Of a stretch of 64,000 nt of DNA, positions 27,362 through 64,000 are shown one piece after another; within the stretch, counting starts at the first letter, position 1; every line of letters starts with the position of its first letter. This DNA is from a virus. Location: the IMG/VR virus record IMGVR_UViG_3300025151_008277, positions 32,001 through 96,000 of that record; one strand, written 5' to 3'. The notes below the pieces were generated by a model. That model was not told where the DNA came from and did not search any database. It saw only the letters and a program-made list of their open reading frames with translations. The translations under genes and the position numbers were made by a program.

Positions 27362-28763
27362 ATTTTATATTTTCTGAATCATAAAGTTTTTTTCGCTCAT
27401 CTATATGTCTTTGACCATATATCAAGTTGTCAGCGATATCGAATATTATAAGCTGCTTCTTATCTTTATGCAAGCGTAAGCCTCTACCTATACTCTGAAT
27501 AATTCTAACCTTAGCTTTGCCGCCGTTAGCGAACATAATATAGTGAAGGTTTTTAATATTAATACCAGTTGAGAATATTTTCGAAATAGCAATAACAACA
27601 ATATTGGTTTCGGTTTCCATTAACTTTTGGATATTACGTCTTTCCTCAACTTCAACATCTCCCCTTATAAAGAAAACCTTTTTATCCTTACAAGCACGAG
27701 TTACATAATCTAATAAAATCTCTCCATGCTCAATATAATCAATTAGTATAAGTGTATTATTATCTAAAGCAGAAGAGATTTTACTTATTACATTGTTTCT
27801 GTAGTTGTTGTTTTTTATAAATTCTCCTTCTTGTAAATAAAAATTTACAGAAGATTTTTTATCATAGATATCAGATTCTTTAGCTTTATAATTAAGCTCT
27901 AAAATATGAACCTTTGCAGGGGTAACATAATTATCTTCTCTGAGTTGATATGCTTTTCTTTCATATAACTGAGGCCCGATCTTACCAAAAATATTCCATC
28001 TATCTAAAGGTTCATCAGGAAGAGTACCAGTGAATCCAAACTTATGTTTAGTATCAATAGTTTTAATAATATTGTTTATTTTATTGTCTTTTCGTAGCTT
28101 GTGAGTTTCGTCAACTATGAGTATATCGATATTTTTTATCCAACTAGTATCACTTTTTTCGCTTTGTAGTATTCCCATATTAGCAATAACTACATGTGTA
28201 TTCATATCTAATTGATTATTACCAGACCATATAGAATGAGAATAGTTAACTTCATACTCGATAAAATCATTATGTGTTTGATTAACCAGGCCTAGATCAG
28301 GTACAATAATTAAACCTTTAAAAAATTTATTGACGTTTTGATAATAATATTCTATCAAGCTAGCCATGGTGAGAGTTTTACCGCCAGCTGTTGCTAACAC
28401 TACTGTACCTCTGCCAGCTCGAATACATCTCTCAACTATATCTTTTTGATAATCTCTTAAATCAAATTTAAGATCATATTTTATTGTAGGAGGCGGTAAT
28501 GTGGGTACGAGTATATCTGTAACTCCTTTTTCAAATTTATATTCAATATCTTTAGATTGACAAAATTTAATTATTTCATGTACTAATCCAATATCACATC
28601 TACCTTTAGGTGTTATTGCATATATTCTATCTTTAGTAAATCTCCGGAGTCGTCGTTGAAAGTTAGCCGCTTTATTTTCTACACTAAAATGTTCTCTGAT
28701 TAAATTTAACTCAGTACCACATACGTAAACAAGCTTATCATTATGGAATTTAAATTCTATCAT
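27333..28763 (-). CDS. uvsW: UvsW SF2 helicase
   Basis: LRDYQ, ATAGGKT, VDETH, FGFTGT, FSTGINI, QSIGRGLR. Confidence 0.95.
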   Translation of the reverse strand: MIEFKFHNDKLVYVCGTELNLIREHFSVENKAANFQRRLRRFTKDRIYAITPKGRCDIGLVHEIIKFCQSKDIEYKFEKGVTDILVPTLPPPTIKYDLKFDLRDYQKDIVERCIRAGRGTVVLATAGGKTLTMASLIEYYYQNVNKFFKGLIIVPDLGLVNQTHNDFIEYEVNYSHSIWSGNNQLDMNTHVVIANMGILQSEKSDTSWIKNIDILIVDETHKLRKDNKINNIIKTIDTKHKFGFTGTLPDEPLDRWNIFGKIGPQLYERKAYQLREDNYVTPAKVHILELNYKAKESDIYDKKSSVNFYLQEGEFIKNNNYRNNVISKISSALDNNTLILIDYIEHGEILLDYVTRACKDKKVFFIRGDVEVEERRNIQKLMETETNIVVIAISKIFSTGINIKNLHYIMFANGGKAKVRIIQSIGRGLRLHKDKKQLIIFDIADNLIYGQRHIDERKKLYDSENIKYEQKNYFEK

Positions 28764-29164
28764 TGAAGCTCTAACTTTTCTAATTCAATTAAGTTTTTAA
28801 TATCCCATTGTATATTATTCACAATGTTTTGTATTTTTTCTAAATACTCTAAAATTAGTTCTTCTTCTTGAATTTTAATATCTATCTCTACTAATTCTTT
28901 TCTATTAGTTACAGATTTTTCAGCAATGGATATGTTAACTTTTACAGGAGATTGATCAATATATTCTGATACCAATTCTCTATATAATTCTTTTTTAGCT
29001 ACTTTTAATTTAATTAATCTTCTTTTATGATTAATATAACGACCAGCCCATTTATGCTTTAAAGAAGGTAATTTAGTTTGATGATTATCGAGGTTTAACT
29101 TATTAATATTGATCTCTGGTTTGAGCTCATTACTATAGTCCTCTAATATCTGATCAACATCCAT
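28760..29164 (-). CDS. uvsY: Recombination mediator UvsY
   Basis: Helical ~134 aa protein with KW and C-terminal WDIKNLIE; adjacent to uvsW; start re-assigned to MDVDQ. Confidence 0.85.
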   Translation of the reverse strand: MDVDQILEDYSNELKPEININKLNLDNHQTKLPSLKHKWAGRYINHKRRLIKLKVAKKELYRELVSEYIDQSPVKVNISIAEKSVTNRKELVEIDIKIQEEELILEYLEKIQNIVNNIQWDIKNLIELEKLELQ

Positions 29165-29170
29165 AGATTT

Positions 29171-29197
29171 ATTATAACTATAAATCACAGAAGTCAA
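29171..29197 (-). promoter_or_regulatory. Sigma70-like early/middle promoter for the replication operon
   Basis: TTGACT-N15-TATAAT-N6-ATG. Confidence 0.6.
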
Positions 29198-29286
29198 CTA
29201 TAGAAATTTAGACTATAGTTTTTCGTTCCCTCCGTAATTCATTTATTTTGGCACTGTAAAATTGCAACTGTATGATAAATACTTAT

Positions 29287-29883
29287 ATGGATTTTGATAA
29301 TCTATACAAATCTTACTTAGCTGAATTTACTGTAGCTGATGCTGGACTCGCTGGTGATGCAGAGTTCGCGTATAATAGTGATGATACGTATGCTCCTGGG
29401 GACGTGAGAACTCCTAAAGCTTTAGGAGCTACTATTTCACGAAAAGGTAAAGTAAAGAAAAAGAAAAAGAAAAAAAAGCTTAACGAAGATACAATATACG
29501 ACTATTTACTTTTCCCTCCTGAAGGAGAAGATCAAGAAAAAATTACTACTTACATAGCTACTTTAAAATCTGATTCAGATGAAGTATACAGGGGTATGTC
29601 TTCTGCGGAATATAAAAACTTAATCAAAGATGGTAGTGTTGTATCTAGAGGCGCTGGTAATACTAGAAAGGGTATTAGCGGTAGTTATGTTTCTGACAGT
29701 ATACAACTCGCGGGTAGATTTGCTTTTGCAGAATATAAAGATAAAGGTAGAGCTTATTTGGTAGCTTTTGATAAAGATAAATTACCAGAATTAAATCCTG
29801 CTGATGAAGGTAATTATTGGACTTCAAATCTCTTTAAAGATGCTATCACCGCAGCTTATTATTTGCCAGATCTGGCTAAGTAG
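29287..29883 (+). CDS. Late protein: capsid-N-arm-like peptide + poly-Lys + putative ADP-ribosyltransferase-fold domain
   Basis: ATAAATA 5 nt upstream; YNSDDTYAPGDVRTPKAL; K8 run; VYRG...YVSDS...DEG motif order. Confidence 0.6.
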   Translation: MDFDNLYKSYLAEFTVADAGLAGDAEFAYNSDDTYAPGDVRTPKALGATISRKGKVKKKKKKKKLNEDTIYDYLLFPPEGEDQEKITTYIATLKSDSDEVYRGMSSAEYKNLIKDGSVVSRGAGNTRKGISGSYVSDSIQLAGRFAFAEYKDKGRAYLVAFDKDKLPELNPADEGNYWTSNLFKDAITAAYYLPDLAK

Positions 29884-30427: not shown

Positions 30428-30890
30428 CTTGAATGATGTCTTTGTTAATTCTAACATAGAGCATGTAAAAAATATCTTTGAAAATCAGCTCACAAATAAA
30501 CCTATCATAAGAAAATACTTCTATCATACATATATTTTTAATATATGTAAATCTGTAATTGATAACAATAAAAAGCATGTTCCAGTATTAATTTTTAATA
30601 CAGAAGATGAGAGTTTATCTAATGATGAATCAAAAATTTTTGATAAGTTTTTAAGAATGTTCCCTGTTATTAATATTAAAACTAAAATTAGTTTTAATTA
30701 CTTTATAAAATCATTATCTGACGCTGGAATGAGAGAAGAGATATCTAACGTAATATATTGTAGTCAAGATAAAATATCGCGTAAGCGTTTTTACTTCTCA
30801 AAGATAGAAAACTTTTGTAAGAGATACGAATTAACGTTTTTAGACAAAAAATTCTTTGGGGACATAAAAAATAAAATGCTTATGATATAA
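30372..30890 (+). CDS. Hypothetical protein
   Basis: 172 aa ORF. Confidence 0.6.
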   Translation: MKKLYNTFVLPKSRYKLVDLNDVFVNSNIEHVKNIFENQLTNKPIIRKYFYHTYIFNICKSVIDNNKKHVPVLIFNTEDESLSNDESKIFDKFLRMFPVINIKTKISFNYFIKSLSDAGMREEISNVIYCSQDKISRKRFYFSKIENFCKRYELTFLDKKFFGDIKNKMLMI

Positions 30891-30899
30891 ATAATTATA

Positions 30900-31349: not shown

Positions 31350-32384
31350 TTATCTCAATCCAGTAGATTCAAATACGTCTCTTGCTACCCCAGCGGTAAA
31401 GCCTCCTGGTACACCTTTAACTATAACTGACACTGCATTATGACTATGTAGGCTCTCGTTATGAGATGCTACAATCTTAAAGTCTGTAATGCGGGATTCA
31501 TTAGTTAGTTTATCATATAACAATCTTACTGCATCTTCTACGAATTTAAGATAAGCACCATTCTTTTCTGCGAATGCTTGCTCATCTTCTCTCTTTACCA
31601 TTACTTGAGTTTCAGTTTGTAGAGCCTCTAAACATAATTCTTGAAGATCTTCTACCCATAGCATTTCATCGAACTTAACACTAACACGGGCCACGCTTCG
31701 TTGACTATGAGGAACAGTTGCTCTATTTCTGTATTTCTCTGCATGTTCACTTAACTCAAAACTGCAAGGACATGCTGAGGAATAAACAAAATCAAAGTGA
31801 ATATATTTTTTGAACTCACCGTCTTTAGTTAAGTCACCTTCAAATACCACATCGTAGTATTGATAACCTTCTAAACCACTTCGTAAACTTTTTTGTTTAA
31901 TAGGATAAGATATTTTCAACATAATACGAGAGTCAAAACTCTTAAGATTATTTTTATATGTTTCTAAAACATCTTTAATTTTACTGATACTGAATACCTC
32001 GTCTTTATGATCATAAAAACTTCTCATAATTCGAGACATATTAATACCTTTTTTATGAGCCTCTAAACTTACACTACCAGTAACACTAGTTTCGAGCTCG
32101 ATAGTATCTCCGTTTCTCTTTTTATAATTTAGAGGTAATTTAAAATTATGTATTCCTACTTGTTGAATAGGTACTGCAGCTCCTTGAATTAAGCTTGATG
32201 GACCGTTTTGTAGATCTGGTAAAGAAGAAATATATTTTTTATCAGCTTTTACCGAATTATCATATACACGAATAGGAGGGAAATAGCTCTTACTGTATTC
32301 ATCTCCCATTATTTCTTTAGCGATGATGTCCTTCTCTCCAGTCAGCTCGTCATCTTCGCCCAGCCATTCATAATTTTTATCCAT
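31350..32384 (-). CDS. folE2: GTP cyclohydrolase IB
   Basis: [46 protein letters not shown]. Confidence 0.96.
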
Positions 32385-56306: not shown

Positions 56307-56335
56307 AAATATGACAGAAGTAATAAATATTATTA

Positions 56336-57492: not shown

Positions 57493-59247
57493 ATGGATAC
57501 AGGTAAAAGTTCAACTTTTGGAAGAAATTTGCAGCAATTTATATCAAACGCGCTACCATATAGGTCGCCAGCTGCGATTATCGACGACGTACAGCAAGAT
57601 AACCCTAAGTTTAAGGAATTTTATCAAGCTGGGTCTTTGCGACAGGATCTTTTATCGAAGCACTCCGTGGTTACACCTAAAGTACCTGAATCTGATCACC
57701 CTGTAGGTAATTTTTTAGCTGATCGAGCATACAACCAGTTAATGTATGCTAATCTTGACGTTGATAAGGGTAAAAGATTAAGAGATTATCGTATGATGGG
57801 AGCTTTTGCTGAAGTTGCTGATGCCTTAGATGAGATTTGTGACGAGTTTTTGTGCGAGGATGATATGGGTAAGGTTATTGAACTACAATTTAGAGATATA
57901 ATCGACTTTGATCCTTTAGTTAGTAAGCAACTACGAGAAGAGTTTAATAATTTTATCAACATCTTTGAGCTTAAAGAAAAAGGTTGGGAGTATTTGAGGT
58001 ATTTGTTAACAGATGGTGAGGTTTATTTTGAAAATATTATTCATAAGAAACATCCTGAGAGCGGTATACTTGGTGTAGTTAATATTCCTACTCATATTAT
58101 TGATCCTGTGTATGATAATTACCAGAATATGTCTATTAAAGCTTTTTTGTTGCGTAAATTAAAACATCACAAAGATGATCAACGTAACGCAGGTCAAAGC
58201 TCTGTGCATTTAAAAGATAAAGACTTTATTCCTCTTGATAGAAATCAAATTACGTACATTAACTCAGGTACTTGGAACGAAGATAAAACGTTTAGAGTGC
58301 CATTTATTGAAAATGCTCGCCGAGCTTATCGTCAGTTAACGTTGGTAGAAGATTCTGTTATTATTTACCGACTAGTAAGAGCTCCTGAACGTCTTGTTTT
58401 TAACGTCGACGTTGGTAATATGAGTCCTCCTAAAGCAGAAGGATACATGCGCAAGCTAATGCAGAACTATTGGTCTAAGAAAACGTTTAACTTAGATGAG
58501 AGTAAGAGAGTTAACTCCTTTAACCCACAATCTATACTTGATGCTTTCTGGTTCCCTAAAAGAGAAGGCAGTAATGGTACGTCAGTTGATTCTTTACCTG
58601 GCGGAGCTAACTTAGGTGAACTTCAAGACTTAGTATACTTTGTTAAAAAGCTATATAAAGCTCTGAAGGTGCCTACTAATAGAGCAGAAATCGAAAGCAC
58701 GTATCAAGCTGATGCGAATGTACTTAGAGAAGAGCTTAAGTTTGCTAATTTTATCGTGAGACTACAGGCTAGTTTTGCTAAAGGATTGAAAGAGTCTTTT
58801 GTAACTCATCTTAAATTAAAAAAGATGTGGAAGAATTTTGAGTTAAGAGAGAATGCTTTTGATTTAGTTTTCACTCCACCTCGTAATTACCATGAGTTAC
58901 GTAAGCAACAAATTATGGACTTGAAGTTAGGTAACTTCAACACTATTACTCAGAACGAATCCATCTCTAAGGGGTATGCTCAGAAGGTATACTTAGGTTG
59001 GAACGATGAACAGATTAAAGCTAATAGAGAATGGCTTCGCAAAGATGCATCTCTTCAACACGAGATTGGTAAAATTCAAGAAGGTGGTAGTGATTGGAAC
59101 GCTGGTAGTGCTGCAGGACCAGATCTCGGCGCTGGAGTAGATCAGGGTGAAGATACACCTCCTGAATTCGGTCCTTCACCTGGAGGTGAACCCGAAACTG
59201 GTGAAGAACCTGAAGCTTCTGCACCGGAGCCGCCACCAGAAGCCTAA
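57493..59247 (+). CDS. gp20: Portal vertex protein (gp20)
   Basis: YR-x-M, EV-x-DALDEI, DG, EDSVIIYRLVRAPER, DVGNM, LPGG, KLYKALKVP, REELKF. Confidence 0.97.
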   Translation: MDTGKSSTFGRNLQQFISNALPYRSPAAIIDDVQQDNPKFKEFYQAGSLRQDLLSKHSVVTPKVPESDHPVGNFLADRAYNQLMYANLDVDKGKRLRDYRMMGAFAEVADALDEICDEFLCEDDMGKVIELQFRDIIDFDPLVSKQLREEFNNFINIFELKEKGWEYLRYLLTDGEVYFENIIHKKHPESGILGVVNIPTHIIDPVYDNYQNMSIKAFLLRKLKHHKDDQRNAGQSSVHLKDKDFIPLDRNQITYINSGTWNEDKTFRVPFIENARRAYRQLTLVEDSVIIYRLVRAPERLVFNVDVGNMSPPKAEGYMRKLMQNYWSKKTFNLDESKRVNSFNPQSILDAFWFPKREGSNGTSVDSLPGGANLGELQDLVYFVKKLYKALKVPTNRAEIESTYQADANVLREELKFANFIVRLQASFAKGLKESFVTHLKLKKMWKNFELRENAFDLVFTPPRNYHELRKQQIMDLKLGNFNTITQNESISKGYAQKVYLGWNDEQIKANREWLRKDASLQHEIGKIQEGGSDWNAGSAAGPDLGAGVDQGEDTPPEFGPSPGGEPETGEEPEASAPEPPPEA

Positions 59248-59256
59248 ATAATTAAA

Positions 59257-60558
59257 ATGGCAACTACAACATGGTCAGATTCATTTTTAAGCGCAGGTAG
59301 TCATTTATTCTCTACTAATCTTGCTAATAAAATAGCTAAGTACCAAGATTTAGCAGATAGAATATGTTACGATCTAGGATACCCTTTAGTTAATCTAGAG
59401 ATTCACGGTCAGCAACTGTATACTAATATAGCGCGCTCAGTGGAAATGTTTAGTAAGTTCGCTGGGTACACAGAAGAATTTTTAGTTTTTGATAGTAGCC
59501 TTTATACTCGTGGTAAAGGTTTAAATATAGAAAAATTATTAACCAATACACCTGAGTTAACAAGTACGTATGCTACTACTTTACAAACTACCCAGGCTAC
59601 AACTAATACGGTTGCTACACTTACTTCAATTGATTTCGAAGCTAATTCTGACGATACATTTATTACAGTCTTTCAGTTTGATGTTTCTGATATAGTTGTA
59701 GATCCATCTGAATATACCTTTACTGTTACACTAGGAGATACTAATACTCAAATTACTAAACTACTTTCGGTAGCTACGTCTGGTGTTCCAACAGCAACAG
59801 TAAGTGAAACTGAGTTCGGTACTGTTTTTACCACTTCCACTGAAATTTTTGAGCTAAGTACTACAGTAGCTAGTAACTTAATATCTATTGGGTTAGTTCC
59901 TAAGACTGATAAATCTGGTTCTATAGTAGCAAACAGAAACGCTACAGTTATTAACGATACTACGACAACAACACTTACTACACAAAAAGCTATTATAGCT
60001 AATTTTGATGAACTAACCAAACAATATCGTAAAGTTATTGAAGTATATAGCTTTGACGAAGCTAGTAATAGCGGTATCAATAACCTTTTTACCATCGAGC
60101 AGACATTAGCGCAACAAACTTATTTTAGTTATGCTATGGGTAACTATGGATTTGATTTAATTAGTTGGTATATATTAAAGCAGTGGATGGAAACGAGAGA
60201 GAAAATGCTCTCTATACGTCGTACGTTTAAGTTTGATGATAGGACTCAGCATTTACATTTGTTCCCTGAACCAAAAACAGGAGAAAGCTTTTACGGGGTA
60301 GTAGGAGCTTATGTTGAAAAACCAATTAGAGACTTAATTGTAGAGCCATGGGTCTTTCAGTACGCATCTGCATTAACTAAAATATCAATCGGTAGGGTTC
60401 GTAGTAAGTTCGGTGGTACTCAATTATTTGGTGGAGGTACATTAGATACTTCCTTGTTACAAGAAGGTCTTTCAGAGAAGAAAGAGTTGGAGCAAATGTT
60501 ATTGACTGGTACTCCAGGATTTGGTGACGCAGCTCCGCCTCAATTCTTCGTAGGATGA
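59257..60558 (+). CDS. gp13: Neck protein (gp13-like) with Thr-rich internal insertion
   Basis: LGYPLVNLEI, W-x-x-QYASAL, G-x-x-RSKF, GGGTLD, P-x-FFVG. Confidence 0.88.
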   Translation: MATTTWSDSFLSAGSHLFSTNLANKIAKYQDLADRICYDLGYPLVNLEIHGQQLYTNIARSVEMFSKFAGYTEEFLVFDSSLYTRGKGLNIEKLLTNTPELTSTYATTLQTTQATTNTVATLTSIDFEANSDDTFITVFQFDVSDIVVDPSEYTFTVTLGDTNTQITKLLSVATSGVPTATVSETEFGTVFTTSTEIFELSTTVASNLISIGLVPKTDKSGSIVANRNATVINDTTTTTLTTQKAIIANFDELTKQYRKVIEVYSFDEASNSGINNLFTIEQTLAQQTYFSYAMGNYGFDLISWYILKQWMETREKMLSIRRTFKFDDRTQHLHLFPEPKTGESFYGVVGAYVEKPIRDLIVEPWVFQYASALTKISIGRVRSKFGGTQLFGGGTLDTSLLQEGLSEKKELEQMLLTGTPGFGDAAPPQFFVG

Positions 60559-61013
60559 TACATAAAAAAGGAGATTTTAAAAAAGGTCTTTTTAGACCAA
60601 AAAATAAAAACAAGTACATCGGTCAAAAGCACCCAGCTTACAGAAGCTCTTGGGAGCTTTATTTTTTTCAGTGGTGTGATCGTAACCCTAATGTACTTGA
60701 ATGGGCTTCTGAAGCAGTAATTGTTCCATATATTTCCCCTTTAGACAATAAAGTACATAGATATTTTGTTGATAACATATTAATACTAAAAGAGGGTAGT
60801 AAGAACGTAAAATACCTTGTAGAGATTAAACCGTATAAACAAACTATACCACCTAACGCTACAAGAAGAAAAAAAAGAGAGACATTGCTACACGAACAAG
60901 CAACATATGAGGTTAATAAAGTTAAATGGGAAGCTGCGTCAGAATGGGCAAAGAAAAACGGTTACAAATTCATTATCATCACAGAGAAAGAACTATTTCC
61001 TGAGAAAAAGTAG
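60555..61013 (+). CDS. gp4: Head completion nuclease (gp4-like)
   Basis: PKN-x-x-KY, YRSSWE, WASE, PY-x-SP, HRYFVD, VEIKP, KW-x-AA, ITE. Confidence 0.93.
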   Translation: MIHKKGDFKKGLFRPKNKNKYIGQKHPAYRSSWELYFFQWCDRNPNVLEWASEAVIVPYISPLDNKVHRYFVDNILILKEGSKNVKYLVEIKPYKQTIPPNATRRKKRETLLHEQATYEVNKVKWEAASEWAKKNGYKFIIITEKELFPEKK

Positions 61014-61021
61014 TTTATAAG

Positions 61022-61029
61022 TATAAATA
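61022..61029 (+). promoter_or_regulatory. T4-type late promoter TATAAATA
   Basis: Exact consensus upstream of the prohead protease. Confidence 0.75.
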
Positions 61030-61052: not shown

Positions 61053-61712
61053 ATGGCATTTAAACTTTTAGTAGAAAAACCGGACCTTAGCGAATTCGAA
61101 TACATCGTTGAAGAAAAGAACTCTAAAGAGCCTTCCAAGCTTTATATTCAGGGACCATTCATGATGGCATCTGAGAAAAATCGTAATAATAGAGTTTACG
61201 ATCTCGAAGAAATGGCTAAAGAAGTCGACCGCTATACAGCAGAAATGATCGATGAAAACAGAGCAATGGGTGAACTTAATCATCCTACTACTGCAGAAGT
61301 TGATCTTGAACGTGCTTGTCATGTCGTCACAGAGCTCACTCAAAAAGATAACGTCTTTTATGGTAAGTCTAAAGTTTTAAGTACTCCTTGCGGTCAAATC
61401 GTAAGAAGTCTTGTTATGGACGGTGTAAAAGTAGGAGTCTCTAGTAGAGCATTAGGTCAAGTAGCAGAAAATCCTGCAGGTCATTCTGAAGTAAAGGATA
61501 TGAAGTTAATTGCCATTGATTGTGTTGCTGATCCTTCCTTTCCTGCAGCTTTTGTTAACGGAATCCTCGAATCTAAACAATGGGTACTTGCTGATGATGG
61601 TAAGTATGAAGAAATCTACAATAAATTTGAAAAGGGTGTGAGTAAGCTACCTAAAAAGGATTTAGATAGCTATTTAAGGGAACATATAATTAGTTTCATA
61701 AAAAACTTTTAA
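61053..61712 (+). CDS. gp21: Prohead protease (gp21)
   Basis: NRNNRVY, GELNHP, TPCG, GVSSRALG, D-x-VADPS. Confidence 0.97.
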   Translation: MAFKLLVEKPDLSEFEYIVEEKNSKEPSKLYIQGPFMMASEKNRNNRVYDLEEMAKEVDRYTAEMIDENRAMGELNHPTTAEVDLERACHVVTELTQKDNVFYGKSKVLSTPCGQIVRSLVMDGVKVGVSSRALGQVAENPAGHSEVKDMKLIAIDCVADPSFPAAFVNGILESKQWVLADDGKYEEIYNKFEKGVSKLPKKDLDSYLREHIISFIKNF

Positions 61713-61882: not shown

Positions 61883-62752
61883 ATGAGCAACATAACTGAT
61901 ACACTAAAAGAGGCTGCCAAGGACGTTGTTTCTGAGGAGACCCTTCAAGCAATTGAACAGGCCTTCCAAGAACAATTAGACGAGAAGGCAGAGGAGCGTT
62001 CTAAGATTGCAGTCGAAGCTGCTCTTAATGAACAAGACGAGAAATACGCAACTAAGTTAGAGGCTTTACTTGAGGCTATCGACAAAGATCATTGTCGTAA
62101 GCTGAATAAGGTGGTTGAGTCCCTTGATACTGATAGAACTAATAAGCTCAAGCAGATTATTAAGAAGTATCAAACAGAACTTAACACAGAAGCTGCTAAA
62201 TTAAGAGACACAATCGTAGAGAGTGTTTCTGATTACTTAGATTCTTATATTGACGAAGCTATTCCTGCTGATTCAATTCAGGAAGCTGTTGATAATAAGA
62301 AAGCGATTAATATTCTTGAAAGCTTCCGTAAGACTCTTGGTGTTGATCTCGCTCTTGCTAACGAATCTATTCGTGACGGTGTCATGGATGGTAAGAAGCG
62401 CTTAGATGAGTCAGTATCTCATGCTACTAAGTTAGAAGAGAAGAACAGTGCTCTAGAGAATGAATTAACTGAACTTAAGAAATCAGTTTATCTGTCTGAG
62501 AAGACAAGATCTTTTGATGAGAAGAAGACTAAATTCATTAATAAGACTTTCGAAGGTAAAGACATGGAATTCATCGAAGAAAACTTTGACTATACCGTGA
62601 AAATGTTTGAGAAAAAGCATACCGAGGTGCTTGATGTACTGAAGGAAGATGCTATTTCTGAGTCAGAAGTGAAAGATAACGTCGATCAAGAGTTGACTAC
62701 TGAGAAGGTTGTTAAGAACCCTTATGTTGACCAATTATCTAGAATTATCTAA
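61883..62752 (+). CDS. gp22: Prohead scaffolding protein (gp22-like)
   Basis: Acidic coiled coil, VSDYLD, directly before the capsid gene; start re-assigned to MSNITD. Confidence 0.85.
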   Translation: MSNITDTLKEAAKDVVSEETLQAIEQAFQEQLDEKAEERSKIAVEAALNEQDEKYATKLEALLEAIDKDHCRKLNKVVESLDTDRTNKLKQIIKKYQTELNTEAAKLRDTIVESVSDYLDSYIDEAIPADSIQEAVDNKKAINILESFRKTLGVDLALANESIRDGVMDGKKRLDESVSHATKLEEKNSALENELTELKKSVYLSEKTRSFDEKKTKFINKTFEGKDMEFIEENFDYTVKMFEKKHTEVLDVLKEDAISESEVKDNVDQELTTEKVVKNPYVDQLSRII

Positions 62753-62826: not shown

Positions 62827-64000
62827 ATGAACGAAACACAGACAAGACCCAATACAGAATATATTGACGGGAACAGGGCACAACAGTTGTTGGAGAAGTG
62901 GAGTCCAGTTTTGGACTATACCTCTGACAAGGTTGGGGCTATCACAGATAGTCATACCCGTCTTAACACCGCCATGCTTTTGGAAAACCAAGAGACATGG
63001 TGTTTGAAGGAAGCCAATACCTCTTCCCCCGGGAATGGTACAGGTGCTTTAGGATCCCCGCTACGTGCTGATGGACAAGGTGGCGGTATTTATAACAGTG
63101 ATGATACATATGCCGATGGCGATCAGAGACTTCCTAAGATTCTGATTCCAATGATTCGTCGTACGTTCCCTGAGTTGATTACTAACGAAATCGTTGGTGT
63201 TCAGCCCATGAGCGGACCAGTCGGTTTGGCATTTGCACTTCGTTATAAGTACTCTGCTACTGGTATCGGTGGCAACCCTGCTTCTAACGATGGAAACCCA
63301 GAAAGCCAAACAAGCGCAGGTGGCGGAGGTACTGGTGAACTTGGTCATAACTTGTTAGATACTCGTTATACAGGTGATACCGCAGGATTCATGAGCACTG
63401 CAGCAACATCCGCACTTAAAGGTATCGATGGTACCAACGTCGCGATTGTTACTGGTGATCAAGGTTTTGCAGCAGCTCTTAGCTCATTTGAGATGGACGG
63501 AGCATCTGGAATGCCTACTGTTGAGCTTAGCTTCGAAAAGACAGCTGTTGAAGCTGGTACTCGTAGGCTTGGTGCTCGTTGGTCGGTTGAGCTCGAGCAG
63601 GATCTTAAGAACATGAACGGTATTGATGTTGACGCTGAGTTGACTAACGCCATGTCTTATGAAATCCAGGCTGAGATTGATCGTGAAATGATCATTCGTA
63701 TGATTCAGGCTACCTTAGGTGCAGGATCCGGTACAGGTTATACTACCTTTAATATCGCTTCTGCTGATGGTCGCTGGGTTGCTGAAAGAAACCGCGCTTT
63801 CTATCAGAAACTGATCATTGAGGCAAACAGAATGGCTGTGCGCAACCGTCGTGGTGCTGCTAACTTTATTGTTGCTACCCCACGTGTTTGCTCTATCCTC
63901 GAAATGCTTCCTGAGTTCAGCTGGATGACAGTTGAAGGCAATGTTAATACATCGCCAGTTGGTGTTGCTAAGATCGGTAACGTTGGTGGGCGTTTTAATG
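62827..64000 (+). CDS. gp23: Major capsid protein (gp23), runs off the window end
   Basis: LLEKWSPVL, AMLLENQ, LIPMIRR, VGVQPMSGPVGLAFALR, ELEQDL, EIQAEIDRE, RRGAANF. Confidence 0.98.
   Translation, partial: MNETQTRPNTEYIDGNRAQQLLEKWSPVLDYTSDKVGAITDSHTRLNTAMLLENQETWCLKEANTSSPGNGTGALGSPLRADGQGGGIYNSDDTYADGDQRLPKILIPMIRRTFPELITNEIVGVQPMSGPVGLAFALRYKYSATGIGGNPASNDGNPESQTSAGGGGTGELGHNLLDTRYTGDTAGFMSTAATSALKGIDGTNVAIVTGDQGFAAALSSFEMDGASGMPTVELSFEKTAVEAGTRRLGARWSVELEQDLKNMNGIDVDAELTNAMSYEIQAEIDREMIIRMIQATLGAGSGTGYTTFNIASADGRWVAERNRAFYQKLIIEANRMAVRNRRGAANFIVATPRVCSILEMLPEFSWMTVEGNVNTSPVGVAKIGNVGGRFN

Follow-up and report, generated by a model that had tools for sequence, protein, structure and literature searches.

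The subject of this analysis is a single gene in a 64,000-nucleotide stretch of viral DNA (positions 32,001 to 96,000 of IMG/VR virus record IMGVR_UViG_3300025151_008277; hereafter, the window) whose product carries, near its N-terminus, a copy of a short segment of the phage's own major capsid protein, gp23. The open reading frame (ORF), which contains FAYNSDDTYAPGDVRTPKALGATISRKGKVKKKKKKKKLNEDTIYDY, lies on the plus strand and ends at 29883. It can start at ATG 29272 or ATG 29287, giving 203 or 198 amino acids (aa); we favour the latter, since the aligned Met begins most homologs, and residues are numbered from it. The first 13 residues, MDFDNLYKSYLAE (29287-29325, +), would form an amphipathic helix like the capsid targeting sequence (CTS) of T4, and end in L-A-E (residues 11-13), the first predicted prohead-protease site; the helix appears at residues 3-16 in an AlphaFold2 model. 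After it come a Gly/Ala/Asp-rich linker (29326-29370, +), disordered in the model (predicted local distance difference test score, pLDDT, below 50 over residues 14-65), and then YNSDDTYAPGDVRTPKAL (residues 29-46; 29371-29424, +), the copy of the start of the gp23 N-arm, with the family core D.YAPGD.R.PK.L. A poly-basic tract follows, made up of GATISRKGKV and a run of eight lysines, K8 (29425-29478, +; K8 at 29455-29478). Next are L-N-E (29479-29487, +), the second predicted prohead-protease site, and, directly downstream of it, a folded domain of ~131 aa (29488-29880, with the stop codon to 29883, +), assigned to the ADP-ribosyltransferase (ART) fold from the AlphaFold2 model and fold comparison. 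CTS-like helix, Gly-rich stretch, gp23-segment copy and poly-Lys, the first ~67 residues in all, would together constitute a tag, called the leader where it is compared among proteins.

This modular layout had been described in an earlier note made from the DNA letters alone, and it stands: the L-x-E sites (LAE and LNE here, LKE in gp23), the Gly/Ala-rich linker and K8 are where that note put them, VYRG, SYVSDS and ADEG follow in the order given, and, across the family of homologs, domain borders fall at [L/I]-x-E while short forms consist of a T4-CTS-like start and a domain only. The linker probably corresponds to the Gly-rich stretch with which mature gp23 begins (in T4, the N-fist region), GG.FG-type Gly-rich stretches being common to the leader proteins and gp23. 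Within the gene, at 29411-29428, a terminator-like hairpin (7 pairs, CTCCTAAAGCTTTAGGAG) coincides exactly with the codons for TPKALGA in the copied peptide; it is likely to be incidental, since shuffled sequences have such sites at about the same rate (mean 0.7).

Residues 29-46 match YNSDDTYADGDQRLPKIL, residues 89-106 of gp23 (63091-63144, +), at 14 of 18 positions (38 of 54 bases), just as had been claimed. Of the identical residues, 14 in number, 7 have the same codon in both genes; drawing synonymous codons at random according to the genome's codon usage would give 6.9. Codon sharing at chance level implies that there was no recent DNA copy and bears out the view that selection has acted on the peptide; recent gene conversion as the source of the match is rejected on the same data, with ancient patchy conversion within lineages a possible contributor. 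Tag and gp23 match at E 3e-6 in pairwise BLASTP; in the full 127-kb record the protein matches only itself and gp23 (E 6.4e-4 for gp23), and a six-frame regular-expression scan finds the motif in the tag ORF and the gp23 ORF only. A profile made from leader-only proteins of other sources (25 sequences) matches the window protein at E 8.4e-28 and this gp23 at E 1.2e-10. Alignment of the 25 leader-only proteins with 25 gp23 N-termini by hhalign gives a probability of 98% and E 2.6e-13 over 32 columns that span the Gly-rich stretch and the core. These profile comparisons indicate homology of tag and gp23 segment across the whole family.

The gp23 gene (62827 to beyond 63999, +; 3'-open in the window; Pfam Gp23, E 8.4e-64), which contains GIYNSDDTYADGDQRLPKILIPMIRR, extends past the window end and encodes 490 aa in the full record. 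The protein reads WCLKE and then ANTSSPGNGTGALGSPLRADGQGGGIYNSDDTYADGDQRLPKILIPMIRRTFPEL, with the cut point predicted between the two: L-K-E (63004-63012, +) would be the maturation site, after E62, and aligns with L-T-E65/A66 of T4 gp23, whose maturation removes 65 residues (PMC9958956). An [LIFV]-x-E at this position is kept in most of 25 clade gp23 sequences, and gp23 Y95, D99 and R101-L117 (RLPKILIPMIRRTFPEL) are invariant in 25 of 25.

Close kin of this gp23 (63-81% identity) are common in IMG/VR, where 348 stretches were confirmed, 80 of them being kept. To cyanophage and pelagiphage gp23 the protein is only ~34% identical (tblastn). A tblastn search of 50,697 phage records returned no match to the whole tag protein or to P0150, a leader protein that stands alone, and no PHROGs family matches the tag protein. 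From the distance to cultured kin and the lack of matches for the tag proteins, the phage is placed by sequence in an uncultured, marine, T4-like clade.

Searches for homologs of the window protein returned 117 at E ≤ 0.01 (word-indexed search) and 61 cluster representatives at E ≤ 0.001 (exhaustive search). They come in several forms. Long forms have leader and domain, as does the window protein, and keep KKKLNE; short forms of ~135-145 aa have M..F..YL.E and then the domain only (MHSFKTYLLEVK, MLNFRAFLKEQK); one 310-aa form runs leader, LNE, domain A, INE, domain B, domain A having a weak, below-cut-off match to Exotoxin-A catalytic (E 0.024); and many homologs share the leader only. Domain borders thus fall on [L/I]-x-E (LAE, LNE, and INE in the two-domain form), and L-x-E also precedes the short-form domain. 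The short-form relatives start MHSFKTYLLE, MKTFQEIRE or MKSFKEFL, a pattern summarized as M.[ST]F..[FY]L.E, and in one record (G004, a single case), whose gp23 lacks the motif, the ART-fold domain stands behind such a plain T4-CTS-like start.

An IMG/VR scan with the back-translated core YAPGD.R.PK yielded at least 119 stretches, of which 80 loci were examined: 53 prove to be leader-type, the other 27 being gp23 genes that bear the exact leader consensus. Among the leader-type ORFs 39 of 53 are stand-alone proteins of 55-126 aa and 14 of 53 are longer and fused to other domains, counts that are approximate because lengths were taken from the first Met and some ORFs reach contig ends. The fused cargos include the ART-fold domain (3 of 14) and a DGNHR-motif domain (4 of 14: L180, L182, L191 and L203), which on that motif may be ParB-like. 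The C-terminal domain is accordingly swapped or absent among homologs, a point that the earlier note had raised. The tag is C-terminal in two proteins (L297 of G035, and P0171) and internal in another (L207), and on these architectures it is portable, with swapped cargo. The N-terminal domain of L297 has a GNAT-like R.KG.A motif, and is so read from the motif only; Cys-rich tails also occur among the fused cargos, and the tag-fused set further includes L183, L208 and L209.

Across the family the consensus runs M..F......L.E, then a Gly-rich stretch, then D.YAPGD.R.PK.LG...R.G, and last poly-K/R. The core positions Y, G, D, R and P do not vary among 25 aligned leader proteins whose identity is otherwise 30-57%; conservation of the peptide in relatives is thereby borne out. 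Many stand-alone members finish with an IPIQRRTFP-like sequence, with the poly-basic tract between the core and that end; these ends indicate that stand-alone members copy the next part of the gp23 arm too (IPMIRRTFPEL). The ART-carrying forms, the window protein included, are without the IPIQRR part.

Several side observations concern these domains. A second small domain (..ILYHATYKP..VVYLAKDP..), bordered by LNE/INE, lies between the tag and the ART-fold domain in L057/L044 (G003), L139 (G007) and P0035, G007 having the tag and this domain only; it has a weak match to Exotoxin-A catalytic (E 0.024, below the cut-off), and from its sequence may be an ART of the H-Y-E type. The ART-fold domain also ends a longer protein with a T4-CTS-like start, P0128, where it follows a cytidylyltransferase-like domain (Pfam E 1.2e-6); such an NMNAT-like partner would fit chemistry related to nicotinamide adenine dinucleotide (NAD). 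In P0124 and P0127, again with T4-CTS-like starts, it is joined to DUF5824. Further small ORFs, L286/L287 (G043/G023, 136-aa frame) and L290 (G032, 90-aa frame), copy the gp23 propeptide (profile positions 7-69, ..L.EKW..VLDY...), so copying of pieces of the gp23 N-terminus seems recurrent in the clade; no propeptide-copying ORF was found in the window's own record.

Whether the tag follows the gp23 of its own genome was examined in 11 records with both genes, taking as segments the 25 residues upstream and the core. Alignment scores within genomes exceed those of shuffled pairings (permutation p 9e-5 with the segment taken whole; 1.1e-4 with just its upstream 25 residues), and p is ~3e-4 after removal of G034, a close relative of G030. 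The shared residues are lineage-specific. GNQFPSQND is common to leader and gp23 in G030 and G034 (in G030, leader GNQFPSQNDKAYAPGDARIPKIL and gp23 GNQFPSQNDAAYAQGDARLPKIL); G013 (leader PGAPNDVYAPNDTRVPKVL, gp23 PGSPNDTYAPNDTRLPKIL) has PG.PND.YAPNDTR in both, with N replacing the consensus G in each; leader and gp23 likewise share SPP..T in G031 and YNSDDTYA in the window. The 11 genome pairs have 193 identical aligned residues, of which 70 share the codon (4/22 in G013, 5/24 in G030), which excludes recent DNA exchange. That own-genome similarity exceeds shuffled pairings thus points to co-evolution, to old conversion within particular lineages or to repeated origin; one ancient duplication whose copies then diverged independently would produce no tracking. 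The proposal that the peptide tracks its own gp23 therefore stands across deep lineages, but not within the window's own clade of four genomes (G000, G001, G003 and G006; p 0.83), in which 18-mer identities, counted by eye, are 14, 13, 10 and 10 of 18, the window pair being the best.

The C-terminal domain was modelled by AlphaFold2 on a 49-sequence alignment. Block-mean pLDDT is 90-97 from residue 71 on, except for 63 at residues 121-130, the conserved S.G.GNTR loop. Compared by VIA-align with 48,161 chains, the model is closest to TkoKptA (9ld3_A: Z 10.4, root-mean-square deviation 2.2 Å over 85 residues, 16% identity). The match pairs model residues 96-191 with chain residues 92-180, the NAD-binding C-lobe only. 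TreX (Z 7.2), CC0527 (7.1), pertussis S1 (6.8), mouse Tpt1 (6.7), LT (6.5) and DarT (6.3) come next and scabin is also listed; 30 chains reach Z ≥ 5, and the recognized ones among those listed are ART-type. Foldseek's top rows are likewise all ART-type (Tpt1/KptA, CC0527, TreTu, cholera toxin/LT), at E 4e-3 to 0.1, with no row at E ≤ 1e-3. ESM Atlas neighbours (PARP, Tox-ART-HYD1 and Arr-ms, scores 0.84-0.86) serve as leads only. With the predicted structure and both fold comparisons in agreement, we regard the ART fold that had been suggested for 29488-29883 as established at the level of the model. In the alignment S120 and Y134 are invariant, R144 is invariant or nearly so, and R102 (of VYRG), D173 and N176 are nearly invariant. 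The N-terminal nucleic-acid lobe of Tpt1/KptA, which carries part of the Arg-His-Arg-Arg tetrad of those enzymes, is absent, and a single helix (residues 80-92) precedes the domain. No significant sequence relation accompanies the structural one: NCBIfam gives no match for the domain, and the best hit of the domain-family profile among PDB sequences, a diphtheria-toxin homolog, has E 0.49. The signature of its tag (core motif and poly-Lys, beside uvsY) marks this very small, unclassified ART-fold domain as a likely early-acting effector.

The position of the gene is constant. A leader profile finds exactly one leader gene, together with gp23, in 5 of 5 records, three of which are complete or near-complete genomes of 200-208 kb, and at all 12 loci examined the leader gene is transcribed divergently from uvsY-uvsW. 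In the window uvsY (28760-29197, -; Pfam UvsY, E 4.2e-10) is the divergent neighbour that marks the locus, and uvsW also adjoins it. Being single in each genome and holding the same uvsY-uvsW-divergent place, the ART-carrying gene of the window has as its positional ortholog, in the complete genome G006, a gene for a stand-alone protein of 75 aa. As for expression, late-like GATAAATA ends 5 nt upstream of ATG 29287 and is overlapped by a sigma-70-like site, TTGGCA-17-TATGAT (10/12 matches), so the label "late" initially given to the gene is not established. ATAAATA, the core of T4-type late promoters, is rarer in the window than in shuffles (33 against 57 expected). It ends 5-6 nt before the starts at 29287, 30900 and 56336 (at 29275-29281, 30887-30893 and 56323-56329); if used as a late promoter at such a distance, it would give leaderless or nearly leaderless mRNAs. 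Upstream of the gp21-type gene it occurs at 61023-61029, with a gap of 23 nt.

The window also carries head genes. The gp20 gene (57493-59247; Portal_T4 match) is followed by a gp21-type prohead protease (61053-61712, +; Pfam Peptidase_S77, E 1.8e-29), the enzyme expected to cut L-x-E sites, and by a gp22-like scaffolding core protein (61883-62752, +), assigned by its position between gp21 and gp23, as in T4, and having no Pfam match. Its 14 orthologs are only 28-53% identical to it, yet the C-terminus (62680-62752) has a conserved NPY..EL..K, with Y281 invariant and L285 nearly so; we regard this end, from its sequence, as a candidate "helix-and-hook" contact for the gp23 N-terminal region. 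The interval between gp20 and gp21 (59257-61013), which in T4 is the slot of genes 67 and 68, has one ORF of 433 aa without a Pfam match and one of 152 aa for a TnsA-like endonuclease (E 7.4e-19), and shows no apparent counterparts of gp67 or gp68.

On balance we lean towards the view that the gene encodes a head-packaged, protease-processed polyprotein, docked by way of its copy of a core-contacting gp23 segment; packaging and the docking partner are what we infer from the analysis as a whole. The copied segment, D.YAPGD.R.PK.L, would be the junction of N-fist and N-arm. During prohead assembly the tag would take a site of the gp23-N-terminus type on the gp22 scaffolding core, so that the protein is built into the core; the gp21-type protease would then cut after LAE and LNE, freeing a basic peptide of ~54 residues, which may remain on the DNA, and the ART-fold domain of ~131 residues, which would stay in the head and enter the host with the DNA, like T4 Alt and the internal proteins.

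The choice of the scaffold as partner leans on T4. According to Fang et al. 2022 (PMC9546572), the N-terminal region of T4 gp23, to L106, is disordered in the unexpanded head; the segment lies inside that head, in probable contact with the gp22 core; the region carries the head-length mutations A66D, A94V and G97S; and on expansion it shifts to the outer surface to become arm and N-fist. With the T4 and window proteins put in register on T4 R100-R101 = R111-R112, A94 and G97 stand opposite I105 and P108 of LPKILIP, within or beside the copied segment. In P22 (PMC9965877) and in 80alpha (PMC5644958) the coat N-arm is bound by the C-terminus of the scaffold. A segment inside the unexpanded head and probably touching gp22 fits a site on the scaffold core better than one on the shell. 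Docking at the portal vertex or inner shell, as the earlier note had suggested, thus finds no support, the T4 segment facing the core before expansion and being at the outer surface after it. A complex prediction with leader residues 6-75 and gp22 (289 aa), run without controls, returned a score of 0.00 and a mark of 0.32 and speaks neither for nor against such docking.

A number of results weigh against packaging through a copied gp23 segment. The gene sits among replication and recombination genes, not head genes, and its timing is ambiguous, the late-like and sigma-70-like elements overlapping. In most ART-carrying members of the clade the first site is L-T-D, not L-x-E, and within the window's own clade of four genomes the tag does not track gp23. 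As to the cargo, ART activity is doubtful: the Glu of ADEG, the classical catalytic residue, is not conserved in the wider family, where it varies (E/K/P/I), unlike D173; the sole Pfam match of the window protein is TreTu_C, at E 0.09 and 13.8 bits against a cut-off of 27, and none of 49 family members reaches the Pfam cut-off, with weak TreTu_C matches in 2 of 49. Finally, the N-arm of the expanded T4 head is on the outer surface (PMC9958956), which would put a shell-bound copy outside the head. Binding at a scaffold site, itself something that we infer, would avoid this last problem.

That outer-surface position also bears on the first alternative, that the copy fills a gp23 N-arm/N-fist groove or a portal contact, for example at vacant positions around the portal or the vertices, and so anchors the cargo to the capsid wall. 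Contacts suitable for this exist in T4, where N-fist and N-arm touch four neighbouring subunits (PMC9958956) and the N-whiskers of the portal touch the gp23 N-terminal region at Met98 (PMC9546572). Many stand-alone members copy more of the arm, with their IPIQRRTFP-like end, and the tracking of own gp23 fits binding to gp23 itself. An arm and fist outside the expanded head are nevertheless hard to square with an internal, protease-released cargo; the ART-carrying forms are without the IPIQRR part, and the predicted LAE and LNE cuts would in any case separate cargo from copy. We consider shell or portal docking unlikely.

Tracking would also be explained if the protein were not packaged at all and served as a decoy or regulator, mimicking the gp23 N-terminus to absorb a host defence sensor, a chaperone or the prohead protease, with an enzyme fused to it in some lineages, since such a mimic must resemble its own gp23. 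There is a T4 precedent of a kind: the Gol peptide, which presumably lies in the gp23 segment adjoining the copied one, activates the Lit protease and binds EF-Tu. The commonest form of the family is indeed cargo-free (the 39 stand-alone proteins of 53), and the gene is single-copy and syntenic, as for a protein with its own function. A decoy, however, leaves unexplained the CTS-like helix, the [L/I]-x-E borders and the poly-Lys tract, as well as the ART-fold domain behind plain T4-CTS-like leaders, and the libraries searched, which did not include padloc, gave no match to a defence or anti-defence family. This explanation we hold to be improbable.

Less probable again is a cytoplasmic ART directed at nucleic acid and held there by a basic tether, the gp23-like stretch being a relic of old partial duplication or patchy conversion with no docking role. 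The nearest structural neighbour of the domain is the NAD lobe of KptA/Tpt1, enzymes whose substrates are RNA and DNA ends, with DarT and scabin among the matches as well; poly-Lys would bind nucleic acid, the gene lies among recombination genes, and tracking is lacking within the window's clade. A relic, on the other hand, should not keep Y, G, D, R and P invariant in 25 leaders while synonymous sites are randomized, a combination that signifies purifying selection, nor is lineage-specific tracking expected of one. The remaining explanation, chance resemblance of two peptides, has some appeal in that the stretch is short (18 residues) and flanked by low-complexity Gly-rich sequence that can inflate local scores, but is refuted by the BLASTP and profile-profile E values (3e-6 and 2.6e-13) and by recurrence of the same relation in every examined record with both genes, and its probability is negligible.

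Returning to packaging by way of the copied segment, we can offer a wider version of it, more tentatively, as something rather less than an even prospect: that a large, uncultured, aquatic, T4-like clade has a portable tag copied from the scaffold-contacting segment of its own gp23 and kept similar to it by co-evolution of the peptides, on a single-copy, poly-basic internal protein that would repeatedly have captured enzymes as head cargo. The captured cargos would be the ART folds and the ParB-like and GNAT-like domains, the last two assigned from motifs only.

How proteins are placed in the scaffolding core of T4-type phages is said to "remain mysterious" in a review of the T4 head (PMC9958956). 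A tag that is homologous to the core-facing gp23 segment, and co-varies with it across lineages, points to a defined, shared binding site. If packaging does operate in this way, D.YA..D.R.PK.L would identify where a T4-type capsid protein meets the scaffolding core, a contact long sought, and injected proteins could be looked for in metagenomes by a sequence rule; the core motif with poly-Lys, beside uvsY, would be a signature of candidate packaged or injected proteins in uncultured phages. A compact natural tag could also interest those who load proteins into phage capsids. In all, this appears to be a novel means of getting proteins into a phage head, and the literature searched yielded no description of a capsid-arm copy serving as a packaging tag.

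Among known systems the scaffolds of P22, 80alpha, T7 and SPP1 offer one comparison: PMC9965877, PMC5644958 and PMC9546572 present the coat N-arm as the contact for the scaffold C-terminus, and the tag copies a coat segment of this N-arm type. In those systems cargo is attached to the scaffold, in nature or by engineering, whereas here the cargo appears to carry the coat side of the interface. Tpt1/KptA provide the best structural match (9ld3_A), though to the C-lobe only; the window domain differs from them in lacking the N-terminal lobe, in its low identity and in having no Pfam match. Its closest relation by fold is nonetheless with the NAD lobe of KptA/Tpt1, not with an R-S-E toxin. T4 gp67, with its acidic tail, and gp68, with its basic tail, were considered as homologs and set aside, no copy of the T4 gp23 arm being visible in them by eye.

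The closest parallels are the packaged proteins of T4. Alt is an ART of the head core, trimmed by gp21, which cleaves after Glu, at ITE-6 and LTE-619 (PMC5694885), and is delivered with the DNA (PMC9958956). The window protein resembles it in having an ART-type fold with [L/I]-x-E sites, here predicted, and is unlike it in size (~131 aa against ~68 kDa for mature Alt) and in having no ART sequence-family match. With IPI, IPII and IPIII of T4 it has in common a short, amphipathic N-terminal leader ending in [L/I]-x-E and followed by basic protein or cargo. The CTS of T4 is MKTYQEFIAE (PMC8442874), a portable leader that packages foreign proteins (PMC8442874, PMC9958956); MDFDNLYKSYLAE and the short-form starts follow the same pattern, a likeness that carries no statistical score, and the Peptidase_S77 protein at 61053-61712 supplies the gp21-type protease that goes with CTS-targeted head proteins. 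The T4 internal proteins, for their part, do not have a leader of ~67 residues with a gp23-segment copy, poly-Lys and a second cleavage site, nor one that can also be C-terminal. As far as the sequences allow a comparison, then, the protein would work like the CTS, internal-protein and Alt system of T4, with a tag of a different kind: long, poly-basic and homologous to the capsid protein.

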